Assembly (NCBI GenBank): GCA_963668315.1
Contig: OY764216.1
Span: forward strand, 4,992,001-5,056,000
Reading direction: 5' to 3'
From: Spirochaetia bacterium
GTDB taxonomy: Bacteria; Spirochaetota; Spirochaetia; DSM-2461
DNA: 64,000 nucleotides
Shown in pieces: positions 18,540 to 39,935 of this stretch. Position 1 is the first letter of the stretch. Each line of letters begins with the position of its first letter. A program made the position numbers and the translations under genes. The notes under the pieces are model-generated. The model saw only the letters and a program-made list of their open reading frames with translations, ran no database searches and had not been told where the DNA came from.

Positions 18540-18542
18540 CAC

Positions 18543-18730: not shown

Positions 18731-19531
18731 TCATAAAGGACTCCTTATCCGGCTTAATCGGCTCTCTGCCATATGCAGGTAAACCATAGTCGAGCTAACC
18801 GACGAATGCCCCAGCATCTTCTTTATCGTCTTTACATCAGTCCCATTCTCCAGAAGATGGGTGGCAAAAGAGTGGCGTAAGGTATGACAAGTCGCTTTCC
18901 CTTCCAATCTCGATTTAAGGCAGGCCTTTTCAAATACTATCTGCAGCGTTCTAATGCTGTACTTCCTACCGTTTATCGACTTGAACAAATATTCTCGGGG
19001 CGATCTGTCGCCCATAAGATAAATAAGATCCTCCTTTAACGAGCGGGATATCAGCGTCACGCGGTCTTTCCTCCCCTTCCCCCTCCTCACGGTTAGAGTG
19101 AAACTTGCAAGATCCACGTCACGCACCCGTAAATCGACGACTTCGCTAACCCTGAGTCCGGACCCATATAGCATGGCAATCATCGTCCTATGCCTCAAAT
19201 TTTGCACAGAGGATAGGATAATCAGAATCTCTTCCCTCGAGAGAACGCGGGGCAGTTCTTTATTTCTTCTGGGTCTGTCAAGAACATAGGGACAATCCCT
19301 GTGAATAACCAACCTGTAAAAAGTTTTAATGCAGGCATAACATACCTTCACCGTAGCCGGCTTATCCTCATAAAGTTTCAGAAATCGGAAAATTTGCTCC
19401 CCGGGCTCATAATTATGTCTTCCCGCGAAAGACTCGAATTTATGGAAATAAAACAGATAAGCTCTAATCGTCTTAGCACTGTAATTGCGGATTTTCATCT
19501 CCGCCTCAAAGCGTTCCCCGTATTTAGTCAT
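18731..19531 (-). CDS. Integron-associated tyrosine recombinase (short, lacks the IntI-specific insertion)
   Basis: N-terminal RNYSAKTIRAY SAM-like domain. Catalytic R (GSGLRVSE), K (GKGRKDR), HxxR (HTLRH), H (LGHSS), Y (TMVY). Divergent from and adjacent to the cassette array. Confidence 0.9.
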   Translation of the reverse strand: MTKYGERFEAEMKIRNYSAKTIRAYLFYFHKFESFAGRHNYEPGEQIFRFLKLYEDKPATVKVCYACIKTFYRLVIHRDCPYVLDRPRRNKELPRVLSREEILIILSSVQNLRHRTMIAMLYGSGLRVSEVVDLRVRDVDLASFTLTVRRGKGRKDRVTLISRSLKEDLIYLMGDRSPREYLFKSINGRKYSIRTLQIVFEKACLKSRLEGKATCHTLRHSFATHLLENGTDVKTIKKMLGHSSVSSTMVYLHMAESRLSRIRSPL

Positions 19532-19580
19532 ATAAACTCCTGTTTTATTAAGCGCAGTTTTTTTGCTATTTCATGCAAAA

Positions 19581-19641
19581 TAACTGCGAACAGGAATATA
19601 ATATTGAAGGATTAATGAAATTCGCATAAGATACGTTAGAT
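19581..19641 (+). other. Putative attI-like primary recombination site (core GTTAGAT at 19635-19641)
   Basis: First GTTRRRY upstream of cassette 1. It is complementary to GCATCTAAC (20045-20053) at that cassette's end. Confidence 0.65.
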
Positions 19642-19662
19642 GCAACTTTTTTGAAGGATTGA

Positions 19663-20052
19663 ATGAGAAAAATAGACATTATACAAGAACTTAAAAATTC
19701 CAATTTAGACCTATCGAAGGTATGGACTTTATGTGGAACAGCAATGGTTTTACATGAATTGCGGGAAACAACATCTGACATTGATTTAGGGTGTTCATCT
19801 CAATATTTCAATGAACTTCTTAAAAATAACTTTCCTGTTAAAACCTGGGAGAATGGCGACCGTTCGATACATTACACTGGAAATATTGAGATATTTGAAG
19901 AATGGAATATAAACGAGAAAAATTATTTTGATGGCATTGCAACTTCATCTGTAAATGATCTAATAGAACAAAAAGAATCTTTAAACAGAGAAAAAGATAA
20001 AAAAGATCTAGAAGTTCTTTATGCTAAACGTCTCCAAAAAAGCAGCATCTAA
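19663..20052 (+). CDS. Cassette 1: small nucleotidyltransferase-fold-like hypothetical protein
   Basis: GTAMVLHELRETTSDIDL resembles the NTase G-x-A...DxD motif. The stop TAA lies inside the inverse core ATCTAAC. Confidence 0.6.
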   Translation: MRKIDIIQELKNSNLDLSKVWTLCGTAMVLHELRETTSDIDLGCSSQYFNELLKNNFPVKTWENGDRSIHYTGNIEIFEEWNINEKNYFDGIATSSVNDLIEQKESLNREKDKKDLEVLYAKRLQKSSI

Positions 20053-20137
20053 CAGACAATATATGCTCCGCTTCGCTGCGGTCTTCGACAAATCTATCAC
20101 TGCGTGATAGACTTCATATATCGTCGGAACGTTATAC
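20047..20137 (+). repeat. attC-like site 1 (short type)
   Basis: ATCTAAC...GCTTCGC...ACTTCATATATCGTCGGAACGTTATAC. Confidence 0.85.
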
Positions 20138-20176
20138 ACAATTTCTTTTTTGAAGATTTTTTTGGAGTATTTGTTG

Positions 20177-21094
20177 ATGAATAAATTATGGCTTTTTGTA
20201 TCAATCATGACCGTTTTTTTGTTTTTTTCTTGCTCTTCTACACCCTATTCAGGAATGGAAATCATTTCAGAAAGTGACGGATATAATTATTACATTGAAA
20301 ATAGTGAATCGAACTCTTTGATCATTTATATTGATGGTAGTGGATATCAATCAGTTTTAGGTCAACGAGATGATTCTGAGAAATGGACCACTACCACCTT
20401 ATCCAATCCACTATCACAGCATTTTAGGAAGAGTTATAATATTCTCATCCCTGAGAAGTTAGATTTTTCTCCTGGAGAAATATATCTTGATAATTCTGAA
20501 GTCCTGAGTAAATCAACGGTTCAGGCTCTTGGATTAAGTTATTCCCAGAAAATAGATAACTTTTTAAGTAATCATAATTTTACTGAAATTATTTTAATAG
20601 GCGCATCAGAAGGAGGTGCCCTTTTACCTTATATTTATAACAATCTGTTACATATAGGTGAAATCAATAAACTAGTAATTTGGAGTGGAGGAGGTCTTAG
20701 TCAACTGAAAGAGTTTCAAATCCTAGGTAATTCGTCAGTTTTAATGCCTGATCAATATCGTGATCTTTGCAAGCAAGTTGATGAAATGGCTGAAGCTATC
20801 AACTCAGAACCTGAAGCTATTGATAAATTTTACCTAGGGCATCCATATATTCGTTGGAGTAGTTTTTTTAAATATGAGCCTATAGATTATATTAGGCAAA
20901 TAGATATTCCCATTTTGTTTATTCACGGAGAGATGGATTGGTCAACACCTGTTGAATCAACACGTATTATTGAAGAATCAAATATTTCTGATCAATTTGA
21001 TTTTATTTATTATCCTAAGATGGAACATAGTCCTTCGTCTTTTGCTGAATTGAAAAGAGTTTTAAAAGACATTGAGGAATGGATACTTGGTTGA
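20177..21094 (+). CDS. Cassette 2: alpha/beta hydrolase lipoprotein
   Basis: Lipobox FFSC, GASEGG, HGEMD, H. Start set to the ATG after a GGAG RBS. Confidence 0.8.
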   Translation: MNKLWLFVSIMTVFLFFSCSSTPYSGMEIISESDGYNYYIENSESNSLIIYIDGSGYQSVLGQRDDSEKWTTTTLSNPLSQHFRKSYNILIPEKLDFSPGEIYLDNSEVLSKSTVQALGLSYSQKIDNFLSNHNFTEIILIGASEGGALLPYIYNNLLHIGEINKLVIWSGGGLSQLKEFQILGNSSVLMPDQYRDLCKQVDEMAEAINSEPEAIDKFYLGHPYIRWSSFFKYEPIDYIRQIDIPILFIHGEMDWSTPVESTRIIEESNISDQFDFIYYPKMEHSPSSFAELKRVLKDIEEWILG

Positions 21095-21117
21095 ACACCG
21101 TTCAAAAAAGAAACTGT

Positions 21118-21262
21118 GTATAACAGAGAATATACGGCTCCGCTTCGCTCCGGCCCAAATTGTTTCTTTGACAAATCTCAAAAAAAGTAGTTATACTTTT
21201 TCCGAGATTTATCAACCCCACAAGGGGGCGAAACAACTTCGTATATTCTCGAAACGTTATAG
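21118..21262 (+). repeat. attC-like site 2 (promoter-containing type)
   Basis: GTATAAC-AGAGAATATACG...CGTATATTCTC-GAAAC-GTTATAG, with internal TTGACA-18-TATACT. Confidence 0.88.
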
Positions 21263-21291
21263 GAAATTTACAATATGCGTATAAGGAAAAC

Positions 21292-21606
21292 ATGGTGGAA
21301 TTAACCTCAGAAGAATTCGACAATACATTTACATCCAATTTCAATGAAGTTACTGAAACGGCAGAAAATTTTAATGGCAAAGATTTTGATCAATATGTTA
21401 AGTCGAATTTAATTGATGAACTTGGTGTTATGCAAATTGAATATATCTATGATACTAAAGATGGAAATTGGAGACATGTCATATTCAAAACACAACTGAA
21501 AAACATTAATTATGTGGTTGTCATAGATATAAATAAGAAAACTATTCTCGGGCACCATGTTTTAGATTTAAACGAAAAATATGGATTAAACGCTTTGGGA
21601 TTGTAA
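21292..21606 (+). CDS. Cassette 3: hypothetical protein
   Basis: ORF with AAGGA RBS that fills the cassette. Confidence 0.7.
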   Translation: MVELTSEEFDNTFTSNFNEVTETAENFNGKDFDQYVKSNLIDELGVMQIEYIYDTKDGNWRHVIFKTQLKNINYVVVIDINKKTILGHHVLDLNEKYGLNALGL

Positions 21607-21611
21607 ACTTC

Positions 21612-21757
21612 CTATAACAGCAAATGATGCGGTTACGGCTTTGCCTTCTCCCAAATTGCCTTTGACAAATACAGAAAAAAGTATGTTATACTTTTCCCTG
21701 TATTTATCAACCCCTTCGGGGTACCAGGCAACTTCGCATATTTGCGAAACGTTATGT
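21612..21757 (+). repeat. attC-like site 3
   Basis: CTATAACAGCAAATGATGCGG...ACTTCGCATATTTGCGAAACGTTATGT. Confidence 0.88.
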
Positions 21758-21817
21758 TCAATGCCCATTTTTAAAAGCTTGTTGTAGCCTCGCCCTTCCA
21801 TGGGCTCGGAGAAGATT

Positions 21818-23320
21818 ATGAAGAAACAAATATTTTCATATATAAATCTACTTAAAGAGTATATGATCCAGTGCGAAGGCAAAATAATAATTTCCCCTTA
21901 TCATTCAGATGTAAAAAAAATAAGATCAGTCGTAAAAAATGAAAGTGCTTTATTTAATAATGTTGTGTTTCGATGTTCAGATAGCGTTGAAATAAAAGAG
22001 CAAAATGAAAAAGAGACATTATTGTTTTCAATCATTTCCGAAGCACTACACAAACCCGATGATTATTATGAAAAATACAAACCAGAATTATTCCGAATAA
22101 AAAACAATCTGCAAGAAGTTTTATCAAAGGTTTTTCAAGAATATAAAAAGAATAGATCTTTCTGTAAAATAATAGCTGATTCTATTGGGTACAAGACATA
22201 CTCAATTCCAGAATCCATAGATTCATTTTTAGGCAAGGAACATTCATATATCTTCTTTTATATTTTTTTAAACCATATTTTTATTGATTTTTTGAAAGCG
22301 AATAATTGTTATGATATAGATACATTTTTAGAGATAGAATCCAATAAATGGTATGATTTTCATAGAAAAAAGTTTGAAGGGATAAAAAATCGGAAAAACT
22401 ACGAATATGAAATTTGTTATTATCTCAATTCGCCTATATGCACTTCTGAAAATGGAACAAAATTAGGAATCTTTAAATACTATGATAAGAATATCTCGTT
22501 ACAAACATCTTACGTTAATGATGATGAATTGGGGACATTAACATATGATTTTTCAGAAAAAGATTACTTAAAATATGTTAACACTAAAATTTCATATAAT
22601 GCTAAAATCCCCATAGAAGCTGAAGTCTCAACTTTTGAGGACTTATATAAAGAAGCAGAAGATATCGGTAAGAGGTTATTGACGAATCTACGATTAGCTT
22701 ATGAATTTGAAATTGGTGTATTAACTTTAAAAATCAAATCAAGGGATCAGTTTACTCCAGATATCAGATCTGGGAACAATATTGAATTTAGTAACAAATA
22801 TACAGCATATTTACCGAAAAGGTTTATTTTTTTTACAGATACACCAATAGATATCCAAGAGACTGACTGCTTAAGACTTTTTAAAAGATTGAACAAAGTT
22901 CAGGAAATAGATGATTGGTTAAAAATTGCCTGTAAAAGGTTTAATCTTTCGATAGATAACTATTTTGTTTATAACCATGACAGATTATTGGATATTGCAA
23001 TCGCATTTGAAGCAATTTTTTTAAATGACAATGAATCGACGAAAGAATTAACATATAGGTTAAGTGTCCGTGCAGCTAAGTTTTTAGGTAAAAATAAGAA
23101 TGAAAAAGAGAATATATTTAAAATTGTAAATGATTTATACAAGTATCGATCAAAGATAGCGCATGGTGTAGATATAAACTCTATGAAACCAAAAGATAGA
23201 GATAGAATTAATGAAATAAATATAGAAGCCCCGATTTTACTTAAACTTTCAATTGTTAAGTCGATTTTTATGAAAAGCAATGATTGGAGAAATTATTGGC
23301 AAACGTTAACTTTAAATTAA
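21818..23320 (+). CDS. Cassette 4: HEPN-domain protein (ApeA-like), candidate defence RNase
   Basis: C-terminal LLDIAIAFEAIF...ELTYRLSVRAAKFLG...LYKYRSKIAHG with an RxxxxH motif. Confidence 0.72.
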   Translation: MKKQIFSYINLLKEYMIQCEGKIIISPYHSDVKKIRSVVKNESALFNNVVFRCSDSVEIKEQNEKETLLFSIISEALHKPDDYYEKYKPELFRIKNNLQEVLSKVFQEYKKNRSFCKIIADSIGYKTYSIPESIDSFLGKEHSYIFFYIFLNHIFIDFLKANNCYDIDTFLEIESNKWYDFHRKKFEGIKNRKNYEYEICYYLNSPICTSENGTKLGIFKYYDKNISLQTSYVNDDELGTLTYDFSEKDYLKYVNTKISYNAKIPIEAEVSTFEDLYKEAEDIGKRLLTNLRLAYEFEIGVLTLKIKSRDQFTPDIRSGNNIEFSNKYTAYLPKRFIFFTDTPIDIQETDCLRLFKRLNKVQEIDDWLKIACKRFNLSIDNYFVYNHDRLLDIAIAFEAIFLNDNESTKELTYRLSVRAAKFLGKNKNEKENIFKIVNDLYKYRSKIAHGVDINSMKPKDRDRINEINIEAPILLKLSIVKSIFMKSNDWRNYWQTLTLN

Positions 23321-23397
23321 ACCTGCTACATAATGCCGTCCATGGCATTATGTAGAATTTATACGCACACATTTAAAAATGGGCACTAAACATAACA

Positions 23398-24967
23398 CAT
23401 ATTAGGACCCCATCTGTCAAGGACAAATTTTCCCCTGTTCTATCTAGGTAGAACATTTTTATATGAAGATGAACCGGACCGATAAAGAATGAAGCATTCT
23501 GTCTTGTTTCTCAAACGGGCTGCAGAAAAGATCTGCTCCAAACACACATAGACACTTTAACTCCGTAATTTTACGGCATTATAGAAATACATCCGTACCC
23601 AATCCTGTCATAATCAATGAAAACGGATTTCTTGGGGAATCCAGTTATTTTCGTGATCAGGCTGGTGCAGAATTCTTCCAGACTTTCTCAATCCTGGTTA
23701 TTTAAAACAGGTCGAAGCAGATATCCAATCAGCGAACGCATAATTCTTCTTTCAAATGATAAATACGAATGATAGTCATGCTATAAAAAGCCGTATTTAC
23801 GGTCATTATCTTTTTATGATTATAGTTATACGTTAGGCTTATCTGCTCCACCTGTTATGAACAAAAACGGTCTATATCAAAGGCTTTCCTCCTTTTGAGA
23901 ACATAATATACAGCTCTGGCTAATTTATGGGCCATGATGGAATAGGCTTTCCCGTTTCCAAACTTTTGCACTAATCTCTGATGATATGATTTTATCTCCG
24001 GGCAATAGCGGATGAACATGACGGCCGCTTCGGAGAAAGCCCACTTGAGATTAGCATTGCCGATTTTGGTATTTTTGGATGCATACTGCTTTCCTCCCGA
24101 TTCCCTCTGACACTTGACTACGCGGCAATAGGAAACGAAGTTCTGTACACGAGGAAAACGGTTAATGTCTTCAATTTCATAGAGAATAGTCAGGGCAAGC
24201 ACATCACCTATCCCGGGAATAGATTTCAACAAAGAAAATGCTAGAGGATCAGAATGATTTGCTGCCTTCAAAACACGAGATTCTATCTTCCGGATCTGTT
24301 CGGTTAACGCATCAACGACGGCTATGTCGACTTCCATATTCATTTTGACCGCCGGATCATCAAACCGTTCGAGTAATTCAGTCTTCGAAGCAATCGTAAG
24401 AGAATTGATCCCCTTCTTTATGGTATCGAAATTGTATTGGGTATTGGTATTCTGGATATGAGAAAGAAGATCTGATCTCCTGCGAACAAGATATATTCGC
24501 CGTCTGAAGAGGTCTCGAATAGCTCTGGTTTTCTGTGGGTAGACATAGGCTTGAGGGATCAGGCCACCTTTTAGCAATGCCGCTATCTTCTGGGAATCGA
24601 TTTTATCGTTCTTGGTTTTTCCTCCGCTTATAGCCTTCATGTAGAGGGCGTGGCCAAGGACAAAGGGAATACTGTTTAGCTGGCAGTAATCGGCAATCCA
24701 GTACCATGTGAAAATACACTCGACACAGATGACGATATCATTAAGAAAGGGGGCGATCGCTTGTTGAAGGTGAACCGGATCAGCGATCATGTTTTTATGA
24801 TAGACGATTTCGCCATCCTGGTTCATAATGCAGATATACATCTTTTTCGTGTGGAGATCGATTCCGCAGTAAAAGTTGTGTTGTTGGGTATAAAATTTCA
24901 TAAGGGCTCCTTTGGTTAAGGTTGTTGGAAATTTTAACATAACCACTAGGGGTCCTTATGATTATCA
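23398..24967 (-). mobile_element. IS110/IS1111-family element, copy 1 (1570 bp)
   Basis: Sub-terminal IR AGGACCCC/GGGGTCCT, CA core at both junctions, no TSD, about 460 bp of non-coding sequence downstream of the transposase. Confidence 0.92.
23855..24901 (-). CDS. IS110-family (DEDD) transposase/recombinase
   Basis: GIDLH, VECIF, KNDKIDS, SIPGIG, RESGGK. Start set to MKFYTQ, after an AAGGAG RBS. Confidence 0.93.
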   Translation of the reverse strand: MKFYTQQHNFYCGIDLHTKKMYICIMNQDGEIVYHKNMIADPVHLQQAIAPFLNDIVICVECIFTWYWIADYCQLNSIPFVLGHALYMKAISGGKTKNDKIDSQKIAALLKGGLIPQAYVYPQKTRAIRDLFRRRIYLVRRRSDLLSHIQNTNTQYNFDTIKKGINSLTIASKTELLERFDDPAVKMNMEVDIAVVDALTEQIRKIESRVLKAANHSDPLAFSLLKSIPGIGDVLALTILYEIEDINRFPRVQNFVSYCRVVKCQRESGGKQYASKNTKIGNANLKWAFSEAAVMFIRYCPEIKSYHQRLVQKFGNGKAYSIMAHKLARAVYYVLKRRKAFDIDRFCS

Positions 24968-25139
24968 GCGAATATACGCTGCGGCTTCGCCTTGGCCTTC
25001 GGCAAATAAACCCTTTGAAAATATTCTAAAAAATTATGATATAATTTCCCAGAATATTTTCAAGCCCGCAAGGGGCTGGGTTTACTTCGTATATTCGCGG
25101 AACGTTATAGGAAACATATTTTTGGAGATTATTTCGCAA

Positions 25140-25661
25140 ATGAAGAATATACTTGAAATGATAAAGAAAGATGCACGATTGTCATTCTGGAGCGAAGAAA
25201 AATTGGAACTGGAAGGCTTTGAGAGGATTTCAGCGACATTGACAACAATTCATAGATTCATTCTCAGCCCTCTCATTGCATATGTCTTCATTGCAGGTAT
25301 AACCAACATGTTACTAAATGTCTCATCAGTAGAAACATACATGATTATTCTCAGTTTTGTACTTGCCATATTCGTCTTTTACTTTTATGGCTATAGGTTT
25401 CTATCTGCTAATCATGCTTTTTTCGATAGAAAAAGTCGAATTGTTCTAATTTTTCTCCCATATAAGTATAGAATTATAAGTGTAAATAAAGACAACATTT
25501 ATTCAGTCGATGGTACAACATTTAATCCTATTGATTTCGTTACAATTAGAGTTAGAGAAGGAGACAAAGTAAGAAAATATCATTTTGTCTCTTCATTTAG
25601 ATTTTTCAAAGCATACACGGAGCATCCTATTGTTAAAAATATTAGGGAATACCTTAGATAG
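25140..25661 (+). CDS. Cassette 5: hypothetical membrane protein
   Basis: Two hydrophobic segments. ATG after GGAG at 25124; the ORF-track start at 24912 is read-through across the attC. Confidence 0.7.
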   Translation: MKNILEMIKKDARLSFWSEEKLELEGFERISATLTTIHRFILSPLIAYVFIAGITNMLLNVSSVETYMIILSFVLAIFVFYFYGYRFLSANHAFFDRKSRIVLIFLPYKYRIISVNKDNIYSVDGTTFNPIDFVTIRVREGDKVRKYHFVSSFRFFKAYTEHPIVKNIREYLR

Positions 25662-25694
25662 AACCACGTGCCAAAAAATATGCATCCTATAACA

Positions 25695-27264
25695 CATATT
25701 AGGACCCCATCTGTCAAGGACAAATTTTCCCCTGTTCTATCTAGGTAGAACATTTTTATATGAAGATGAACCGGACCGATAAAGAATGAAGCATTCTGTC
25801 TTGTTTCTCAAACGGGCTGCAGAAAAGATCTGCTCCAAACACACATAGACACTTTAACTCCGTAATTTTACGGCATTATAGAAATACATCCGTACCCAAT
25901 CCTGTCATAATCAATGAAAACGGATTTCTTGGGGAATCCAGTTATTTTCGTGATCAGGCTGGTGCAGAATTCTTCCAGACTTTCTCAATCCTGGTTATTT
26001 AAAACAGGTCGAAGCAGATATCCAATCAGCGAACGCATAATTCTTCTTTCAAATGATAAATACGAATGATAGTCATGCTATAAAAAGCCGTATTTACGGT
26101 CATTATCTTTTTATGATTATAGTTATACGTTAGGCTTATCTGCTCCACCTGTTATGAACAAAAACGGTCTATATCAAAGGCTTTCCTCCTTTTGAGAACA
26201 TAATATACAGCTCTGGCTAATTTATGGGCCATGATGGAATAGGCTTTCCCGTTTCCAAACTTTTGCACTAATCTCTGATGATATGATTTTATCTCCGGGC
26301 AATAGCGGATGAACATGACGGCCGCTTCGGAGAAAGCCCACTTGAGATTAGCATTGCCGATTTTGGTATTTTTGGATGCATACTGCTTTCCTCCCGATTC
26401 CCTCTGACACTTGACTACGCGGCAATAGGAAACGAAGTTCTGTACACGAGGAAAACGGTTAATGTCTTCAATTTCATAGAGAATAGTCAGGGCAAGCACA
26501 TCACCTATCCCGGGAATAGATTTCAACAAAGAAAATGCTAGAGGATCAGAATGATTTGCTGCCTTCAAAACACGAGATTCTATCTTCCGGATCTGTTCGG
26601 TTAACGCATCAACGACGGCTATGTCGACTTCCATATTCATTTTGACCGCCGGATCATCAAACCGTTCGAGTAATTCAGTCTTCGAAGCAATCGTAAGAGA
26701 ATTGATCCCCTTCTTTATGGTATCGAAATTGTATTGGGTATTGGTATTCTGGATATGAGAAAGAAGATCTGATCTCCTGCGAACAAGATATATTCGCCGT
26801 CTGAAGAGGTCTCGAATAGCTCTGGTTTTCTGTGGGTAGACATAGGCTTGAGGGATCAGGCCACCTTTTAGCAATGCCGCTATCTTCTGGGAATCGATTT
26901 TATCGTTCTTGGTTTTTCCTCCGCTTATAGCCTTCATGTAGAGGGCGTGGCCAAGGACAAAGGGAATACTGTTTAGCTGGCAGTAATCGGCAATCCAGTA
27001 CCATGTGAAAATACACTCGACACAGATGACGATATCATTAAGAAAGGGGGCGATCGCTTGTTGAAGGTGAACCGGATCAGCGATCATGTTTTTATGATAG
27101 ACGATTTCGCCATCCTGGTTCATAATGCAGATATACATCTTTTTCGTGTGGAGATCGATTCCGCAGTAAAAGTTGTGTTGTTGGGTATAAAATTTCATAA
27201 GGGCTCCTTTGGTTAAGGTTGTTGGAAATTTTAACATAACCACTAGGGGTCCTTATGATTATCA
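25695..27264 (-). mobile_element. IS110/IS1111-family element, copy 2
   Basis: Same ends and same transposase as copy 1, offset 2297 bp. Confidence 0.92.
26152..27198 (-). CDS. IS110-family transposase
   Basis: Protein identical to copy 1. Confidence 0.93.
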   Translation of the reverse strand: MKFYTQQHNFYCGIDLHTKKMYICIMNQDGEIVYHKNMIADPVHLQQAIAPFLNDIVICVECIFTWYWIADYCQLNSIPFVLGHALYMKAISGGKTKNDKIDSQKIAALLKGGLIPQAYVYPQKTRAIRDLFRRRIYLVRRRSDLLSHIQNTNTQYNFDTIKKGINSLTIASKTELLERFDDPAVKMNMEVDIAVVDALTEQIRKIESRVLKAANHSDPLAFSLLKSIPGIGDVLALTILYEIEDINRFPRVQNFVSYCRVVKCQRESGGKQYASKNTKIGNANLKWAFSEAAVMFIRYCPEIKSYHQRLVQKFGNGKAYSIMAHKLARAVYYVLKRRKAFDIDRFCS

Positions 27265-27436
27265 GCGAATATACGCTGCGGCTTCGCCTTGGCCTTCGGC
27301 AAATAAACCCTTTGAAAATATTCTAAAAAATTATGATATAATTTCCCAGAATATTTTCAAGCCCGCAAGGGGCTGGGTTTACTTCGTATATTCGCGGAAC
27401 GTTATAGGAAACATATTTTTGGAGATTATTTCGCAA

Positions 27437-27958: not shown

Positions 27959-27991
27959 AACCACGTGCCAAAAAATATGCATCCTATAACA

Positions 27992-30303: not shown

Positions 30304-30315
30304 AAAGAACACTAC

Positions 30316-30459: not shown

Positions 30460-30523
30460 ATTATTATTTGGCTTATAATATTTTTTTTCATCATTCGCCA
30501 TCCTTGGCTCATTAGGGGAAATT

Positions 30524-30994: not shown

Positions 30995-31057
30995 ATCGTG
31001 TTTAAAAGTACATCCTTGTACTTTTAAAGAACCTATACGCTGTCGCCAAATAACAAC

Positions 31058-31201
31058 GGGTAACAGCGAATTATGCGGTTTCGCTTCGCTCCACCAAAAT
31101 TGCCTTTGACAAATACCCGTTCAATTATGATATAATTGAACAGCCATTTATCAACCCCGGTGGGGTACCAGGCAACTTCGCATATTCGCGAAACGTTATA
31201 T
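31058..31201 (+). repeat. attC-like site 8
   Basis: GGGTAACAGCGAATTATGCGG...ACTTCGCATATTCGCGAAACGTTATAT. Confidence 0.88.
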
Positions 31202-31215
31202 TCAATAGCCAATTC

Positions 31216-32031: not shown

Positions 32032-32055
32032 CACCGTTCATGAATTGGCTACTGA

Positions 32056-32201
32056 ATATAACAGCCAATATACGGCTCCGCTTCGCTCCGGCCCAAATTA
32101 ACCCTTTGACCAATTCTGAAAAAAGTATGATATACTTTTCCCGAAATTGCTCAACCCCACAAGGGGCCGGGTTTACTTCGTATATTGGCGAAACGTTAGC
32201 A
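32056..32201 (+). repeat. attC-like site 9
   Basis: ATATAACAGCCAATATACG...CGTATATTGGCGAAACGTTAGCA. Confidence 0.88.
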
Positions 32202-32269
32202 AAATTTTTGTTTTCGGCTTCGTTATCGGTTTTCTGACCATCCGTGGTCAGAAAAAATGAAGGAGTAAC

Positions 32270-33055
32270 ATGGAAATTCAACATCTTGAGAAATACTATA
32301 ATAATATTGATGAGGATGGAAGGCTCCTTTCAAAATATGGTTCAGTCGAATTTTTAACCACTATGAAATATATTCAAAAATATCTTACGCAGGATATGAA
32401 GATTTTGGATATTGGGGCTGGAACAGGTATTTACAGCCTGGCTTTAGCTGATAAGTGTCATCATGTTGATGCCGTAGAGCTGATACAGAAAAATATTGAC
32501 ATATTCAAATTAAAAATAGAAAAGCATAAGAATATTACAGTGCAAAAAGGAAACGCTCTAGATTTGAGTTTTCTGGAAGATAATTTCTATGATATTACGT
32601 TGTTATTTGGCCCTATGTACCATCTTTATACAGAAGAGCATAAACTCAAAGCTCTTTCAGAAGCAATAAGGGTAACAAAACCAAAAGGCTATATTCTAAT
32701 AGCATACTGTATGTCGGATGCAACTATTTTAAATTATGGGTTTGTAAAGAAAAATATTGTGGATCTTATTGAAAAAGAGATGTTAGATACGGAGGAATTT
32801 AAGCCCCGGTCAGAACCGATAGATCTATTTGAACTTCATAGAAAGGAAGATATAGACCGCCTAAATAATAAATTTAATGTAAAAAGATTAAACTATGTAG
32901 CTACAGATGGTTTTACAAATCATTTTAGAGAAACCGTGAATAATATGAGTGACAAAGAATTTGAGATTTATATGAAATACCATTTTTTCACGTGTGAACG
33001 AGAAGATATGCAAGGAATAACTCATCATAGTCTGGATATATTACAAAAACAATAA
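32270..33055 (+). CDS. Cassette 10: class I SAM-dependent methyltransferase
   Basis: ILDIGAGTG, GNALDL, GPMYHL. Confidence 0.88.
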   Translation: MEIQHLEKYYNNIDEDGRLLSKYGSVEFLTTMKYIQKYLTQDMKILDIGAGTGIYSLALADKCHHVDAVELIQKNIDIFKLKIEKHKNITVQKGNALDLSFLEDNFYDITLLFGPMYHLYTEEHKLKALSEAIRVTKPKGYILIAYCMSDATILNYGFVKKNIVDLIEKEMLDTEEFKPRSEPIDLFELHRKEDIDRLNNKFNVKRLNYVATDGFTNHFRETVNNMSDKEFEIYMKYHFFTCEREDMQGITHHSLDILQKQ

Positions 33056-33125
33056 AAGAATGAGGAAATACTATACATCCCTGTATAGTATTATCTTCTA
33101 TCAGAAAATCCGAAAACAAAACTTC

Positions 33126-33326
33126 AGCTAACAGCGTTTATATGCTCCGCTACGCTCCGGGCTTCGCCAAATTTAAATCAAAAAGAATTATTTTAAAAAA
33201 AGAACAACAATTACGCTATAATAGATTCTATACAACAAGGATTTGCTACGGATTTGCCTATGTCACATTTCTTGTTTTCACAAGAAATTCGCCAATTACG
33301 GCAAACCGCAGAAATCGTCGTTCTAA
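33126..33326 (+). repeat. attC-like site 10 (long type, ends at the inner GTT)
   Basis: Left arm matches site 6; the sequence diverges right after the inner CGTT at 33319-33322. Confidence 0.75.
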
Positions 33327-33346
33327 AGACAAAGAAGGGGGGGGGA

Positions 33347-33871
33347 ATGAGACTAGTTATACGATTAGCCACAAAAGAAGATTCATCAAGTATTCTTAGA
33401 GTAATTAATCAATCATATAATCCATATAAAAACTTAATACCAGCTAATTGTGGATTTGTAACTTCTATAGAAGAAATAATCAAAATTATGAAAGATGAGA
33501 GCTCCTCATGTTGGGTAGCTGAAAATAATGATAGTGTTATTGGTGTTGCTACTGGAATTACAATTGCTCCAAGAGCATATCATCTTAAGCTTTTATTTAT
33601 CGCAGAACATGCGCAACGCAAAGGTATAGCTTCGAACTTATTATCAACTTATGAAAATTCAGGCAAAAAAAAAGGGTATAAATTATTAACTACCAATTAT
33701 CAGAAATGGGCTCCATGGTCAAGAAACTTCTATCTTAAGCAAGGATATAAGGAATATATTGAGGGGGATGAATTAGATTTTCCAGATTTGCATGAAACGA
33801 TTTCTTTTTATAGAAGGATTGGTAAGTTAAATAATGATCGAAAATGTTTTATATGGAAAAAGACATGCTAA
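33347..33871 (+). CDS. Cassette 11: GNAT-family acetyltransferase
   Basis: IRLAT, AQRKGIASNLL acetyl-CoA motif A, FYLKQGY. Confidence 0.85.
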   Translation: MRLVIRLATKEDSSSILRVINQSYNPYKNLIPANCGFVTSIEEIIKIMKDESSSCWVAENNDSVIGVATGITIAPRAYHLKLLFIAEHAQRKGIASNLLSTYENSGKKKGYKLLTTNYQKWAPWSRNFYLKQGYKEYIEGDELDFPDLHETISFYRRIGKLNNDRKCFIWKKTC

Positions 33872-33944
33872 GGTTACGGGTAAGGAGCACTAAATGCCAT
33901 CCGTGGCATTTACTGGACATACAGACAATAGGAATGGGCACTAA

Positions 33945-34090
33945 ACATAACAGCAAATGATGCGGTTATGGCTTTGCCTTCACCCAAATTGCCTTTGACA
34001 AATCCAAGAAAAAGCACGTATACTTTTCCTTAGATTTATCAACCCCTAAAGGGGTACCAGGCAACTTCGCATATTTGCAAAACGTTAAAT
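33945..34090 (+). repeat. attC-like site 11
   Basis: ACATAACAGCAAATGATGCGG...ACTTCGCATATTTGCAAAACGTTAAAT. Confidence 0.88.
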
Positions 34091-34093
34091 GAA

Positions 34094-34585
34094 ATGTTTT
34101 GGGAGAAGATTTTTTTACAAGGAATTATTTTGAAACAACCAAGAATTGTAACTGTTTGCGGAGCTTTAGTTATTAACAATAATCAAGTTCTCATAATTCA
34201 GGAAGCTAATAAAAAGGCTTTTGGGAAATTTAATATTCCTGGAGGTCATGTTGATTTAGATGAAGATCTGAAGGAAACGGCTATCCGAGAAGTTAAAGAA
34301 GAGACGGGAATTCCCATCATTGTTGAAGATTTTCTTGGAGTCTATACTCATCAAGCACAAGATAAATCAACAATCATCAAAATAATATTTGTTGGAAAAC
34401 CCTGTGATTTTGAAATCAATTTTCCTAAGGATGAGATACTAAACGCTACTTGGATGAACATTGATGATTTTCTGAAAATCGAAGCTGATAAGTTACGTTC
34501 ACAAGATTTATTTTCAATAATTACAGATTATAGAAACAAGAATCAATGTAATTTATCATTAGTGAAAGATATTGTTAGAGTATAA
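34094..34585 (+). CDS. Cassette 12: NUDIX hydrolase
   Basis: Nudix box GGHVDLDEDLKETAIREVKEETG. The true start may be TTG near 34130. Confidence 0.9.
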   Translation: MFWEKIFLQGIILKQPRIVTVCGALVINNNQVLIIQEANKKAFGKFNIPGGHVDLDEDLKETAIREVKEETGIPIIVEDFLGVYTHQAQDKSTIIKIIFVGKPCDFEINFPKDEILNATWMNIDDFLKIEADKLRSQDLFSIITDYRNKNQCNLSLVKDIVRV

Positions 34586-34617
34586 TTTTATTCTGACCCA
34601 TTCTCCCAAAACACTTC

Positions 34618-34761
34618 ATCTAACAGCAAATGATGCGGTTACGCTTCGCTTCACCCAAATTGCCTTTGACAAATCCAGAAAAAAGTATGATATACTTTTC
34701 CCTGTATTTATCAACCCCTGCGGGGTACAAGGCAACTTCATATATTCGCGAAACGTTAAAT
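34618..34761 (+). repeat. attC-like site 12
   Basis: ATCTAACAGCAAATGATGCGG...ACTTCATATATTCGCGAAACGTTAAAT. Confidence 0.88.
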
Positions 34762-34818
34762 ATAATTCAGGTTAGATGGATACTTGATTCAGCCATCCGT
34801 GGCCTCGAAGGAGAATGC

Positions 34819-35648
34819 ATGAGCAAAGATCACACTCCTATTTTAAGAAATTACAGGAATAATTGGTACAATGAAGATTATCTCTTGATTTAATTGCAAA
34901 AAGAATTGATCTTTATTCATGTGTAGACATTTTAGATGTTGGCTGTGGTGAATTTCATTGGACCCTATTACTTGCAAAATACTTTCCAGATAATTTTCAT
35001 TTAGTAGGTATTGATTTGAATGAGATAACTTTCTCAAAACTCACAGATATTAAAGAATTATATCCCAATTGGAATTTTATAAAAGGTGATATTAAGAGAT
35101 TGCCTTTTGAGGATAATTCATTTGATCTTGTTACATGTCAGACATTACTTATCCATCTAGACTCTCCGATTTTAGCTGTAAAAGAGATGTTCAGAGTACT
35201 AAAGCCAGGCGGAAAAGTACTCATTTCAGAACCTAATAATTTTTCTCAATCGACATTTAGAAATAGCTGGAATATAGATCATAGTACCCAGAAAAGATTG
35301 GATAGTATAACTGAAAAATTGAAAAGTGATGAGAAGAAAAAGAAAAATGGCCATGGTGATAATTCAATAGGAGAAATTGTTCCCATTCATCTCAGAAAAA
35401 ACGGTTTCTCAGAAATTAGAACCTATATGAATGATAAGGTTACCTCTCTTGTTCCTCCATATTCAACAATAGAAGAACAACAAAAAATTGATATGCTAAC
35501 TCATTTCTCAGAAAACTATCCATTTGAAATGTCAGAACAAGATAAAGAAGAATTAAATGATGAAATCCAAATGATCAGTCGAGAAGAGTATATTGCATAT
35601 AATCCAACAATGTTATTCCTGACTATGGGAGTCAAACCTCAGATATAA
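34819..35648 (+). pseudogene. Cassette 13: frameshifted SAM-dependent methyltransferase
   Basis: The frame from ATG 34819 (after AAGGAG) stops at 34893. The other frame continues ...ILDVGCGEFHW...GDIKRLPFEDNSFDLV. Consistent with a +2 (CT) duplication near 34883. Confidence 0.75.
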
Positions 35649-35700
35649 AAGTACGTCCTTGTACTTTTATTCAATCTTTTCCGTAATAACCTGGAACTAC

Positions 35701-35893
35701 ATTTAACAGCGAATGATATGCTCCACTTCGTTTCGGGCTTCGCCAAATTTCTATCAAAAAGAATTAGTTCCGAAATAGAGAATTTGTATGCTACAATGAA
35801 CAACAATATAACCAAGATTTGCTACTGTCACATTTCTTGTTTTCACAAGAAATCCGCCAGCTTCACGGTCTGCAGCAGAAATCGACGTTATCT
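35701..35893 (+). repeat. attC-like site 13 (long type, ends at the inner GTT)
   Basis: ATTTAACAGCGAATGATATG...AATATAAC...GAAATCGACGTTATCT. Confidence 0.75.
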
Positions 35894-35923
35894 TGACTAA
35901 ATATTTTTGAGGAGAAAATAAAA

Positions 35924-36319
35924 ATGTTAGGATTAACTTTATATATAGAAAATTCTAATGAAGCTTTAGATTTTTATTGTAATGCCTTCAAATTGGAATT
36001 GGGATATAATGTTAAAAATGATAATGGAACATATTTACATGCTGAACTTTTTAGACAAGGTTTTGGTGGTTTTGCAATAAGTGAATCAGATGATAAAATA
36101 ATTCAAAATGCAATGCTTGCAGCTAAACAGCCAACAATAAGTTTAGGGATGAATTTTGAAAGCAATGATGAATTAGATCATGCTTATGAAGTACTAGGAG
36201 AAGAAGGTCATATCCTACGTCCAATTGGTTCTCTTCCTTGGTCTCCATATTCAGCAGATGTTGTAGATAAGTTTGGGGTTTGTTGGTATTTATATGTAAC
36301 TCAGCATAAACCTGAATAA
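35924..36319 (+). CDS. Cassette 14: VOC/PhnB-family protein
   Basis: EALDFYCNAF, HAEL, PWSPYSADVVDKFGVCW. Confidence 0.85.
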   Translation: MLGLTLYIENSNEALDFYCNAFKLELGYNVKNDNGTYLHAELFRQGFGGFAISESDDKIIQNAMLAAKQPTISLGMNFESNDELDHAYEVLGEEGHILRPIGSLPWSPYSADVVDKFGVCWYLYVTQHKPE

Positions 36320-36382
36320 TATTTGTTTCTTAACCATTCGGCTCAATGCCTCATTAAAGGCTTTTTCAGGGCGTTTACTGCC

Positions 36383-36501
36383 TTATAATAGCAAGTGAAT
36401 ATTTGATCCGAAATGTTCAATCCTTCAACTGTAGTCGTTCGGCATCCGTGCCTCACTACTTGGTAAATCCCGACGCATACTACTTATAACAGACGATATA
36501 T
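36383..36501 (+). repeat. Degenerate attC-like site 14
   Basis: TTATAATAGC...AGACGATATAT with the core mutated GTT to GAT. The downstream GATATATGTAATGATTTTTTG still complements the end of cassette 15. Confidence 0.55.
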
Positions 36502-36536
36502 GTAATGATTTTTTGAGATTTATACAGGAGGGACAT

Positions 36537-36905
36537 ATGCCTGATTTTGATACAATTGACGATTATATCAATTCCCAACCAGAGGGTACAAAAGAAGCTC
36601 TATTTAAATTGAAGGATTGTATACTCAAAGCTGCTCCTGATGCAAAAGAATTATTCAATTATAGTATTCCTGCATTTGCTTTAGTAGAAAATGGGAAAAG
36701 AGAACAACAGATAATGATCGCAGGATACAAAAAGCATGTTGGGTTTTATCCACATCCAACAACTATTGAAAAATTCGCTAATAAATTAACTATATATAAA
36801 CAAGGTAAAGGATCTATTCAATTTCCAATAAACAAACCAATTCCTTGTGAACTGGTAATTGAAATGGTTAAGTATAGAAGAATGCGTGTTAAGGCTGGTA
36901 AATAA
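36537..36905 (+). CDS. Cassette 15: DUF1801/YdhG-like protein
   Basis: TIDDYI, NYSIPAF, AGYKKHVGFYP, KGSIQFP. ATG after GGAGG. Confidence 0.82.
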   Translation: MPDFDTIDDYINSQPEGTKEALFKLKDCILKAAPDAKELFNYSIPAFALVENGKREQQIMIAGYKKHVGFYPHPTTIEKFANKLTIYKQGKGSIQFPINKPIPCELVIEMVKYRRMRVKAGK

Positions 36906-36933
36906 ATGACGCAAAAAGTCACTACATATAACA

Positions 36934-38503
36934 CATATTAGGACCCCATCTGTCAAGGACAAATTTTCCCCTGTTCTATCTAGGTAGAACATTTTTATAT
37001 GAAGATGAACCGGACCGATAAAGAATGAAGCATTCTGTCTTGTTTCTCAAACGGGCTGCAGAAAAGATCTGCTCCAAACACACATAGACACTTTAACTCC
37101 GTAATTTTACGGCATTATAGAAATACATCCGTACCCAATCCTGTCATAATCAATGAAAACGGATTTCTTGGGGAATCCAGTTATTTTCGTGATCAGGCTG
37201 GTGCAGAATTCTTCCAGACTTTCTCAATCCTGGTTATTTAAAACAGGTCGAAGCAGATATCCAATCAGCGAACGCATAATTCTTCTTTCAAATGATAAAT
37301 ACGAATGATAGTCATGCTATAAAAAGCCGTATTTACGGTCATTATCTTTTTATGATTATAGTTATACGTTAGGCTTATCTGCTCCACCTGTTATGAACAA
37401 AAACGGTCTATATCAAAGGCTTTCCTCCTTTTGAGAACATAATATACAGCTCTGGCTAATTTATGGGCCATGATGGAATAGGCTTTCCCGTTTCCAAACT
37501 TTTGCACTAATCTCTGATGATATGATTTTATCTCCGGGCAATAGCGGATGAACATGACGGCCGCTTCGGAGAAAGCCCACTTGAGATTAGCATTGCCGAT
37601 TTTGGTATTTTTGGATGCATACTGCTTTCCTCCCGATTCCCTCTGACACTTGACTACGCGGCAATAGGAAACGAAGTTCTGTACACGAGGAAAACGGTTA
37701 ATGTCTTCAATTTCATAGAGAATAGTCAGGGCAAGCACATCACCTATCCCGGGAATAGATTTCAACAAAGAAAATGCTAGAGGATCAGAATGATTTGCTG
37801 CCTTCAAAACACGAGATTCTATCTTCCGGATCTGTTCGGTTAACGCATCAACGACGGCTATGTCGACTTCCATATTCATTTTGACCGCCGGATCATCAAA
37901 CCGTTCGAGTAATTCAGTCTTCGAAGCAATCGTAAGAGAATTGATCCCCTTCTTTATGGTATCGAAATTGTATTGGGTATTGGTATTCTGGATATGAGAA
38001 AGAAGATCTGATCTCCTGCGAACAAGATATATTCGCCGTCTGAAGAGGTCTCGAATAGCTCTGGTTTTCTGTGGGTAGACATAGGCTTGAGGGATCAGGC
38101 CACCTTTTAGCAATGCCGCTATCTTCTGGGAATCGATTTTATCGTTCTTGGTTTTTCCTCCGCTTATAGCCTTCATGTAGAGGGCGTGGCCAAGGACAAA
38201 GGGAATACTGTTTAGCTGGCAGTAATCGGCAATCCAGTACCATGTGAAAATACACTCGACACAGATGACGATATCATTAAGAAAGGGGGCGATCGCTTGT
38301 TGAAGGTGAACCGGATCAGCGATCATGTTTTTATGATAGACGATTTCGCCATCCTGGTTCATAATGCAGATATACATCTTTTTCGTGTGGAGATCGATTC
38401 CGCAGTAAAAGTTGTGTTGTTGGGTATAAAATTTCATAAGGGCTCCTTTGGTTAAGGTTGTTGGAAATTTTAACATAACCACTAGGGGTCCTTATGATTA
38501 TCA
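36934..38503 (-). mobile_element. IS110/IS1111-family element, copy 4
   Basis: Same ends and same transposase as copy 1, with independent flanks. Confidence 0.92.
37391..38437 (-). CDS. IS110-family transposase
   Basis: Protein identical to copy 1. Confidence 0.93.
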   Translation of the reverse strand: MKFYTQQHNFYCGIDLHTKKMYICIMNQDGEIVYHKNMIADPVHLQQAIAPFLNDIVICVECIFTWYWIADYCQLNSIPFVLGHALYMKAISGGKTKNDKIDSQKIAALLKGGLIPQAYVYPQKTRAIRDLFRRRIYLVRRRSDLLSHIQNTNTQYNFDTIKKGINSLTIASKTELLERFDDPAVKMNMEVDIAVVDALTEQIRKIESRVLKAANHSDPLAFSLLKSIPGIGDVLALTILYEIEDINRFPRVQNFVSYCRVVKCQRESGGKQYASKNTKIGNANLKWAFSEAAVMFIRYCPEIKSYHQRLVQKFGNGKAYSIMAHKLARAVYYVLKRRKAFDIDRFCS

Positions 38504-38651
38504 GCGAATATGCGGTTCCGCTGCGCTTCACCAAAATTGCCCGTTGGGCAACTTCACCTATTCGCGAAACGTTATCGGCAATAAGCGCCAAAGCATTTAT
38601 TATTCAAAGGAAAATCCGGCGTTCTGCCGGATAAAATGGAGGAAATTAAAA

Positions 38652-39071
38652 TTGGATTTACCAATATTGAAAGATAAAGATATTTTTCCTGATAGTAATG
38701 TTTTAAGAAAAGCTTTGAATGATGATTTTAAAATATTTCAAGAATTTGAAACAACAATTACAAATGGTGAACACAAGTTAGTTGGCGAATGGAGATATTA
38801 CAATGATGGTAAAGCTTGGATTTATAAAGCTCAATATAAAAAGAAAACAGTATTTTGGCTATCAGTCATATCAACCGGATTTACTGTAACATTTTATTTT
38901 AATGGAAAAAATTATGAAGGTGTTTTTGACTTGTCAATTGAAGAGTCAATTAAAGATGATTTCAAAAAAATGGAATTAGTTGGAAAATTACATCCTCTAC
39001 AAATCAGTGTAAATAATACGAATCAAATACCAGACATACTAGACATTATTGAGTATAAGAAAAAGTCATAA
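38652..39071 (+). CDS. Cassette 16, gene A: DUF3788-like protein
   Basis: EWRYYNDGKAWIYK...KKKTVFWLS. TTG start after GGAGG. Confidence 0.7.
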   Translation: MDLPILKDKDIFPDSNVLRKALNDDFKIFQEFETTITNGEHKLVGEWRYYNDGKAWIYKAQYKKKTVFWLSVISTGFTVTFYFNGKNYEGVFDLSIEESIKDDFKKMELVGKLHPLQISVNNTNQIPDILDIIEYKKKS

Positions 39072-39099
39072 TGTAAGTCGCAAGAATTTTTGGGGAAAA

Positions 39100-39582
39100 A
39101 TGAGAAAAGACAAAAAGAAAATGATATATTTTTCTGGACCTCCCTGTTCTGGTAAATCAACGATTTGTAAAGAATTGACTAAAAAAATAAGAAATGTTGA
39201 ATATGTTCTTGGTGATAAATATTGGATAAAGAATGATGATTGTGACTTTAATAGACGAAGAGTGAGAACTAATGAAGATATATTAAAATCACTTTGGAAT
39301 AAAACATCAAAGTCATTACTTTTAGAATGGGTTCCATATAATGGATCATTCATATCAGAACTAAAAAAGATCTGTGAAGAACAAAGATTGGAATTCAATC
39401 ATGTCGTTATTTATGCTCCAAAGGATATACTTGAACAAAGAAAATTACTTCGAGATAAAAATAAAGAATTGGGTCCAATAAATTTCGAGGAAATTAAAAA
39501 ACTGGAAAATGTTTTACTTTTTGACTCTAGTATTGAGTCGTTAAAATCAATTGTTCTAGAATGTGAAAAGTTATTTGATTGA
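39100..39582 (+). CDS. Cassette 16, gene B: small P-loop kinase (AAA_33-like)
   Basis: YFSGPPCSGKST Walker A. Confidence 0.75.
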   Translation: MRKDKKKMIYFSGPPCSGKSTICKELTKKIRNVEYVLGDKYWIKNDDCDFNRRRVRTNEDILKSLWNKTSKSLLLEWVPYNGSFISELKKICEEQRLEFNHVVIYAPKDILEQRKLLRDKNKELGPINFEEIKKLENVLLFDSSIESLKSIVLECEKLFD

Positions 39583-39935
39583 GTTCTATTTAGTCGAAAA
39601 ATGGTATCCGGATATTTTTCTATAAATTGTGCCCGTTCGTCGTCCTGGCCATAAAAGGATACCCGTCCCCATTTCACCACGATTGCCGATTTTATCTCCT
39701 CCCGTCAGGAGGAGATTACTTCCCTCTTCACCATGATCCTGTCCGTCTGTTACAAAGGCATTCCCGCTGATATGATAGAAAAAGGCACAGGATTATTCCA
39801 TTATAGAATAATGAGCTATCGAGGAGGCGTGAGGCCATATCTCTGGAACGGGGCTCCCCTGGCCATCCGCCAATAAAAAGCCCGGGGAAACCACGGGCCG
39901 ATGTTATGTCTTGGAAATAATCTTGTTTATCCGGA

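Follow-up and report, generated by a model that had tools for sequence, protein, structure and literature searches.

Within a 64,000-nucleotide (nt) stretch of contig OY764216.1 from a Spirochaetia bacterium, hereafter the window, the gene for a short tyrosine recombinase lies divergent from an array of gene cassettes. By every sequence sign this system is integron-like, yet it fails the tests that define the integron integrase IntI and its attC sites. We propose that the short enzyme probably recombines the folded bottom strands of hairpin sites of its own kind, which would make the system a second, overlooked integron class. The two features on which this proposal is centered are:

18731–19531, minus strand: tyrosine recombinase of 266 amino acids (aa), IntI-related group, no IntI insertion, C-terminal SPL (Pfam, alignment, tree, fold)
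19619–19646, plus strand: attI-like site, two inverted arms with a 6-bp spacer, probable crossover at G|TT with G at 19635

A recombinase related to IntI but lacking its insertion

The recombinase combines Phage_int_SAM_4 and Phage_integrase domains (Pfam). Residues R127, K152, H216, R219, H242 and Y251, which we take from knowledge of the family to be the catalytic ones, and the C-terminal SP are unchanged in all 42 aligned homologues (picked among 120 matches listed of 659), in agreement with the preliminary description of this DNA, which had credited the protein with a full catalytic set. Because a length of 266–277 aa and intact catalytic residues are kept across hundreds of short-enzyme homologues, the short form is not the result of decay. 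The K.K.R and H..RH motifs are 58 residues apart, as first described, versus 100 in the IntI of the same genome. IntI4 aligns to the protein in two pieces, with query residues 167–194 opposite IntI4 residues 175–245, and the IntI-specific insertion near patch III (helix I2) is absent.

Profile scores of the enzyme stay below the cut-offs of the named families. It reaches 183.5 against a cut-off of 265 for IntI (TIGR02249, in two stretches), 202.6 against 220 for NF040815, and 157 and 152 bits against 335 and 330 for XerC and XerD, and is thus neither of the latter; the genome encodes its own XerC/D-like pair elsewhere. An AlphaFold model built from the alignment (predicted local distance difference test score, pLDDT, 88.7) finds its best fold match in IntI4 (2A3V; Z 23.5, root-mean-square deviation 4.4, 260 residues aligned, chain of 313 residues), with archaeal XerA ranking below it (Z 22.1, root-mean-square deviation 14.2). 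The tree comprised 44 rows chosen from 93, without curated references or archaeal XerA, and 276 columns, insertion columns having been removed by a 50% fill rule. In it the seven IntI rows form a 100/100 clade that excludes the window recombinase, IntI and the short enzymes group together (100/99) apart from five Xer-like rows, and the window recombinase sits in a 96/85 clade with the enzymes of three relatives (G015, G016 and G033). The earlier suggestion of a distinct integron-like class is supported in that the enzyme scores below the IntI cut-off, stands outside the IntI clade and sides with IntI against Xer. A quick tree had nested IntI within the short enzymes; the more careful tree is undecided, and a single clade of all short enzymes is still acceptable by the approximately unbiased (AU) test (p 0.219), so that ancestry is not established.

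The closest named relative of the recombinase, at 69%, comes from a Spirochaetaceae metagenome-assembled genome, and plasmid records gave no match at E 1e-45. Two tRNA genes, not the cysteine-motif transposase gene of IS91-type elements, follow the recombinase gene, and what is presumably an IS91-type gene of the same genome encodes a different protein (C1:4638252). The tRNA placement is not common to relatives, and Rfam reports just these two tRNAs and one chance match in the window.

18370–18540, plus strand: tRNA-Arg(CCT) and tRNA-Asp(GTC), 190 bp from the 3' end of the recombinase gene

Anatomy of the array, the attI-like site and the cassette sites

Sixteen co-oriented units run from 19635 to about 39690, with a GC content of 32.9% (insertion sequence, IS, copies excluded) versus 51.3% for the genome. 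The earlier count of about 16 AT-rich cassettes thus stands, but the TAAC...GTTA palindromes said to bound them are intact at only eight of the 15 junctions; four are split by IS copies, two are hybrids ending in a canonical attC, and one keeps a left arm only. As previously noted, the stop codon of cassette 1 (TAA, 20050–20052) lies in the TAAC inverse core. A TATAAT hexamer immediately upstream of the attI-like site is a possible cassette promoter (Pc); a promoter scan of 18500–22000 was at chance level (11 versus 12.4).

The left arm of the attI-like site repeats the L element found in the right arms of the cassette sites, where it lies 10 nt from the core, and the left arms of the sites share the 6-nt register of attI. 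From these 6-nt left and 10-nt right registers, the predicted hairpin would resemble a dif duplex whose spacer carries a 4-nt bulge. The dif site itself has an 11-6-11 layout, which the attI-like site resembles. The geometry of attC, with equal 5-nt spacers and an extrahelical L-box base, is not found here: the arm offset is +4. When AAC...GTT pairs were scanned for at any arm offset (score at least 10), the window gave eight matches, and all seven in the array are at +4; the genome as a whole gave 87 matches over seven offsets, with 19 at +4, 12 of which fall in the array and two clusters of orphan sites described below. The 6-nt attI register also occurs beside short enzymes in G015, G016, G019, locus L036 and G332, and both orphan arrays open with it; the attI-like site of G033 is less clear, and L028 and L030 read 7 nt together with +3 sites. 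The canonical attC sites of the source genome (G000 in our set of 38 family genomes) have a 7-nt register. Other short enzymes (L028, L030, L036, L039, L040 and L049) are neighbors of hairpin sites whose offset is +1, +3 or +5, and the size of the bulge may accordingly vary by subfamily. The stop codon of the short enzyme of G332 is separated from attI by a long and seemingly perfect palindrome that has a TAAC...GTTA core (L131:3440–3500).

Several observations bear on the strand and form in which these sites are used. Complementary ends are present in 12 of the 14 units compared (units 15 and 16 being excluded) and absent from units 11 and 14; the 5' end of a cassette matches its own 3' end at 13.7 of 16 positions on average over 11 distinct cassettes, versus 6.1 in 110 non-self pairs. 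Mismatches in this outer stem are strongly skewed: 12 cassettes hold 17 bottom-strand G-T pairs, one top-strand G-T pair and nine others, and 32 cassettes from relatives and an orphan array, filtered for matching ends, hold 35 bottom-strand versus two top-strand G-T pairs, and 27 of them have the same position-11 wobble. Within the inner stem, eight of 10 pairs show a compensatory change among 17 aligned, related sites. On all five measures of covariation, none of 500 shuffles reaches the observed values and none of six slid structures does so, the tested structure having been taken from the same sequences. The bottom strand has the lower folding energy in all eight intact sites. Since the top strand is the one transcribed, the bottom-strand wobble bias would point to single-stranded DNA rather than mRNA. 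Taken together, covariation, folding energy and wobble bias point to a bottom-strand hairpin as the probable substrate.

Seven long sites (21121–21259, 21615–21754, 30319–30456, 31061–31198, 32059–32198, 33948–34087 and 34621–34758) also carry TTGAC(A/C) and TATA(A/C)T 18–19 nt apart. The putative -10 hexamer lies at the tip of the inner hairpin and is directly preceded by TG in five of them. Each long site may promote the cassette that follows.

Cassettes found in new contexts

The crossover was placed at the core by comparing neighbors of related cassettes. Orphan array 1 contains a 94% copy of unit 10 behind a different cassette. An 87–92% copy of unit 16, also behind a different cassette, is present in orphan array 2, and in this copy a canonical attC separates the two genes. 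An 81% identical version of unit 8 stands first at attI in G015, the match beginning at the G of GTT, and unit 15 has a 77% relative in G020. The two orphan arrays (L108 and L109; C1:3437766–3445290 and C1:4546820–4549463) each have an attI-like head behind the same 77-aa open reading frame, and no short enzyme was found near either; they would be served in trans by the short enzyme. Orphan array 1 lies near a gene for a 459-aa phage-type integrase, and a mobile element may carry such an enzyme-less attI platform. A 13-bp match between the 3' flank of the recombinase gene and the start of orphan array 1 was dropped when orphan array 2 proved to lack it. Contig joints considered as excision products were also rejected, those at full depth being repeat-derived and the others being of low depth (3–4 versus 75–240) and containing foreign letters.

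An IS element has repeatedly entered these sites:

23396–24965, minus strand: IS110-family element copy 1, IS1111-type layout, 1570 bp; 363-aa transposase at 23855–24946, 459-nt downstream non-coding region

It has the DEDD transposase, downstream non-coding region and subterminal inverted repeats of the IS1111 group. Five copies, 100% identical over 1570 bp, are present in the genome, four in the window array and one in orphan array 1. All five sit in a new-type left arm just past the TAA, in opposite orientation to the cassettes, and none is in the canonical attC array. Matches between a possible IS guide RNA and the target are limited to 6–7-mers in the 459-nt region, which, in a comparison made without a control, are too short to count.

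Association of short enzymes with the sites

Among the 38 family genomes, the short protein was matched in seven (E 1e-45) and an IntI, called above the TIGR02249 cut-off, in 24. The right-arm pattern of the new-type sites, with one mismatch allowed, occurs in 18 of the 38, mostly as one to three matches, while the reversed pattern used as control gives at most one per genome. These counts come from kin that are not independent and are phylogenetically uncorrected. In G033, 55 matches lie on one strand over 154 kb, the first of them 1.5 kb upstream of the short enzyme; in G015, five of six matches adjoin its short enzyme; in G332, a single contig, four exact matches lie on the downstream side of a short enzyme that has their orientation. 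The search for IntI found none in any of the three (G033, 93% complete; G015, 96%; G332, 100%), all of which have sites beside a short enzyme. Three site clusters in G020 each adjoin a short enzyme, and remnants of short genes stand beside new-type sites in G009 and G034. Homologues of the recombinase do adjoin new-type sites, the opposite of the lack of association that would have refuted the preliminary description.

A metagenome set of 80 loci comprised 41 short non-IS91 loci, 26 flagged as IS91-linked by a crude motif, three canonical and 10 unclassified. The short non-IS91 loci hold 18 sites versus 3.25 expected from pair shuffles, and a site was found at three of the 26 IS91-flagged loci and at none of the three canonical ones. 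Across the phylum the right-arm pattern was matched in five of 301 genomes; being family-specific, it provides no information on Leptospira or Bacteroidota. A search of genome contigs with the recombinase alone gave three loci, one of them useful.

A canonical IntI in the same genome and sites that enclose attC

The source genome also encodes a canonical IntI (C1:3134145–3135380, 411 aa, TIGR02249 360.9 bits) with its own divergent array, and the two kinds of site sort by integrase. Canonical attC sites were sought with a separate detector and with a profile made from five canonical sites. With one detector for each site type, the IntI array contains no new-type and five canonical matches, versus seven new-type and three canonical in the window, all three nested. 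The canonical profile gave 37 matches in the genome, including those three, each enclosed by a new-type site; a profile of the window sites had no match in the canonical IntI array. One of the enclosing sites is:

29557–29815, plus strand: composite site, new-type outer arms around TATAAT (29643) and a complete canonical attC (about 29654–29762) with complementary flanks

G015 and both orphan arrays show this composite frame as well, around three different attC bodies, and a further one in G020 differs in its flanks. The inner attC at 33320 and that at 35887 each run at G|TT into a foreign start, with loss of the outer right arm; the start at 33320 shares 15 nt with the start of a canonical cassette at C1:3342523, and both joints are bridged by short-read contigs of the same sample. 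The complementary half, an inner right flank followed by an outer right arm and a new-type cassette, occurs in the IntI array of G002, but behind an IS rather than an attC body. From these joints we infer that IntI has mediated excisions at the inner attC and that cassettes travel from array to array.

Around these canonical systems we also observed that the IntI array (C1:3135380–3162000) is riddled with other IS elements and contains long runs of 7-nt tandem repeats after two copies of a toxin-antitoxin-like cassette (C1:3142940–3143140 and 3153290–3153420). Further canonical attC clusters lie at 3310000–3350000, 4639000–4644400 and 4865000–4872000. In G036, a canonical IntI gene (322 aa; L126:4722–5870) starts about 40 bp past a new-type core and points the same way, much as the cargo of a cassette would.

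Proposed mechanism and alternatives

We propose that the short enzyme would pair a double-stranded, dif-like attI with the folded bottom strand of a cassette site. The bottom strand would be cut at AA|C and one strand exchanged. Since only the core pair would match between the partners, the second exchange would be blocked by the bulged, non-homologous spacer, and not by a helix I2 that reads extrahelical bases. Replication would then resolve the junction, by analogy to XerC on CTX attP(+). Sites that enclose an attC would let the canonical IntI cut inside the array, so that cassettes could pass between both systems. The geometry of the sites, their strand bias, the crossover position and the linkage of enzyme and sites are what we observe; catalysis, strand use and resolution would follow from them on this scheme.

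A number of observations weigh against this mechanism. The core stem, 4-nt bulge and inner stem all appear in the minimum-energy folds of only four of the eight intact sites. The left arm contains one additional base in 13 of 46 strong sites, too few for that base to count as conserved. The association of enzyme and sites is partial in the metagenome, with a site at nine of the 41 short non-IS91 loci (eight of 22 at 5 kb or more). G002 (one contig, 95% complete) has new-type arms, one of them within its IntI array, and no short enzyme was found there; nor was one found in G021 (71% complete), which has sites. In G036 a new-type site precedes the canonical IntI gene by 40 bp, and in G019, G022 and G026 the enzyme lies on short contigs with zero or one match. 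The wider short-enzyme family includes IS91-linked recombinases. No clear excision circles or reordered joints were seen in assembled contigs of the source sample, contigs being prone to drop rare variants. The genome also encodes a canonical IntI, which seems to have been active on nested attC sites of the window array. Finally, IntI1 still recombines some attC sites from which the extrahelical bases have been deleted, according to the available portion of PMC5027507, and their absence here hence does not exclude IntI.

The last points lead to the reading, to which we give little credence, that canonical IntI acts in trans on what would be attC sites of an unusual form, with the short recombinase a bystander or a decayed IntI. 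It would account for the IntI footprints at nested attC sites, for the GTT/AAC core and bottom-strand bias common to attC and new-type sites, and for the new-type arms near IntI in G002 and G036; it also draws on the tolerance of IntI1 for extrahelical-base loss and on the IntI of the source genome (360.9) and of 24 of the 38 family genomes. Against it, sites adjoin a short enzyme in three genomes that are 93–100% complete and in which no IntI was found, each integrase of the source genome has its own site type, the register is 6 nt in new-type and 7 nt in canonical sites, short-gene remnants lie beside sites in G009 and G034, and a protein kept at 266–277 aa with intact catalytic residues is not decayed. 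The preliminary description had raised the possibility that a canonical IntI elsewhere accounts for the array; such an IntI does exist, but its own array holds only canonical attC sites, and the three IntI-less genomes have sites nonetheless.

It is similarly improbable that the short enzyme moves cassettes by a classical double-strand, two-exchange reaction at dif-like sites and that the palindromes are promoters or RNA structures. The Xer-like size of the enzyme, the resemblance of attI and the left arms to 6-bp-spacer dif/loxP-type sites, and the TTGACA...TATA(A/C)T pairs at 18–19 nt spacing in most long sites would all fit such a reaction. Neighbors, though, switch at the right arm, whose spacer in double-stranded form measures 10 nt rather than 6; the spacers of attI and of the sites differ, leaving no spacer homology; the arms covary; and it is the bottom strand that forms the wobble pairs, not the top strand, which is the one transcribed. 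Least probable of all, and by a wide distance from our proposal, is that the repeats resemble MITEs (miniature inverted-repeat transposable elements) or repetitive extragenic palindromic (REP) sequences and that IS activity and homologous recombination built the array. Four IS copies, an exact 2297-bp tandem duplication and several truncated sites speak for such activity, whereas the single site per gene in uniform orientation, the complementary ends specific to each cassette, the neighbor switches at the same core and the attI-like site adjoining the recombinase in many genomes do not fit it.

We thus favor recombination of folded bottom strands by the short enzyme. A broader reading is possible, though we hold it only tentatively and think it somewhat doubtful: that these arrays are a second, widespread folded-single-strand integron class, run by an Xer-like enzyme on dif-like 6-bp sites, and a living, pre-I2 form ancestral to IntI; in genomes that have both systems, nested attC sites would act as adaptors that pass cassettes, including resistance and defense genes, from one recombination code to the other.

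Relation to known systems

Sedentary chromosomal integrons share with this system a recombinase divergent from attI, co-oriented one-gene cassettes, a GTT/AAC core, a stop codon in the inverse core and IS targeting of the sites, and IntI is both the closest fold match and the tree neighbor of the window enzyme. The bottom-strand G-T bias is likewise a property of attC, as far as the consulted part of PMC5027507 goes. Unlike chromosomal integrons, the window system has an enzyme without the IntI insertion and helix I2. Its sites differ from attC in a 6-nt rather than a 7-nt register, in a 4-nt core-side bulge in place of the conserved extrahelical base, in complementarity that is specific to each cassette, spans about 20 bp and keeps a conserved wobble at position 11, and in the promoter-like hexamers within most long sites.

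The closest parallel for the proposed single exchange is CTX phage, for which the sections of PMC3442271 at hand describe XerC exchanging one strand on attP(+), in whose overlap region bases are unpaired. CTX borrows the host XerC/XerD at dif for one-way phage integration, whereas the window system has one enzyme of its own, which falls outside the XerC/D clade and adjoins a many-cassette array. Close known systems also include the 'integron-like subgroup' of tyrosine recombinases (Smyshlyaev et al., 2021, PMC8138268) and NCBIfam NF040815; the accessible text calls the insertion essential for integron function and describes no arrays or sites for insertion-less members. Cury et al., 2016 (PMC4889954) reported, in the portion available, 21 recombinases without intI_Cterm near attC, four of them between IntI and Xer, and dismissed them. 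Figure S1 of that paper and the Smyshlyaev datasets may list members of the short-enzyme family. IS1111-family members that target attC are known, namely ISKpn4 and ISPst6 (PMC11187229, as excerpted); like the window element they have an IS110-family transposase, a downstream non-coding region and subterminal inverted repeats, and are inserted at one end of cassette sites in opposite orientation to the cassettes, whereas all five copies in this genome sit in new-type left arms and none in the canonical attC array. In the literature searched, which covered few subscription papers, we found no description of arrays such as these. The expectation that IntI/attC models would miss the class agrees with our results by proxy only, the models used being others than IntegronFinder's intI_Cterm hidden Markov model and attC model.

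Cassette contents and flanking features

The units, all on the plus strand, are:

19635–20130: unit 1, 129-aa hypothetical protein (19663–20052); intact site 20050–20134
20131–21255: unit 2, 314-aa protein with weak alpha/beta-hydrolase matches; intact site 21121–21259
21256–21750: unit 3, 104-aa hypothetical protein; intact site 21615–21754
21751–25103: unit 4, 506-aa protein; IS-split site
25104–27400: unit 5, hypothetical protein of 173 aa, membrane-like; IS copy 2 (25693–27262) splits the site
27401–29811: unit 6, identical copy of unit 5; IS copy 3 (27990–29559) splits the site
29812–30452: unit 7, glyoxalase-family gene; intact site 30319–30456
30453–31194: unit 8, DUF6998, PADLOC type II methyl-directed restriction enzyme (E 1.4e-67); intact site 31061–31198
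31195–32194: unit 9, APH(3')-family aminoglycoside phosphotransferase gene (NF033068 208, barely above the cut-off of 205); intact site 32059–32198
32195–33319: unit 10, methyltransferase gene; ends in left arm and canonical attC (33129–33322), no outer right arm
33320–34083: unit 11, GNAT gene; canonical-cassette-like start, intact new-type site at end (33948–34087)
34084–34754: unit 12, NUDIX gene; intact site 34621–34758
34755–35886: unit 13, methyltransferase gene with apparent frameshift near start; ends in left arm and canonical attC (35704–35889)
35887–36494: unit 14, glyoxalase-like gene, then a lone left arm (36487) joined to unit 15 at GAT
36495–38570: unit 15, DUF1801 gene; site split by IS copy 4 (36932–38501)
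38571–39690: unit 16, DUF3788 and AAA_18 genes; inverse core truncated at about 39690

Five cargo proteins have no firm family, and units 5 and 6 form an exact 2297-bp tandem repeat in the assembly. The 506-aa protein of unit 4 (gene region 21800–23320) had no Pfam, NCBIfam or PADLOC match; it has a C-terminal RxxxxH motif, which we take to be HEPN-like, and is a candidate defense nuclease, and a related gene is covered by seawater contigs. The GAT junction between the lone left arm and unit 15 (36487–36510) falls inside the L element, while the related G020 cassette begins with a normal GTT; it could be the product of recombination at a secondary core or of a deletion. Directly past the array, a minus-strand gene (39936–42908) encodes a 990-aa surface protein with Listeria-Bacteroides repeats and Ig-like and GLUG domains. 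A lone, decayed new-type site (45170–45260) follows a CAAX-protease gene (44318–45142) in a second AT-rich stretch 5 kb beyond the array.

Significance

The source genome combines the two systems with hybrid sites and is therefore well suited to studies of their specificity and cross-talk. If our proposal is correct, an enzyme without helix I2 that runs large cassette arrays would be the intermediate or sister solution to that of IntI, and the origin of integron chemistry would become testable by standard conjugation assays. Surveys that require both an IntI domain and attC geometry would, in that case, undercount cassette reservoirs, and the undercounted reservoirs would include resistance-like genes of the APH(3') family and defense genes such as the restriction enzyme found here.

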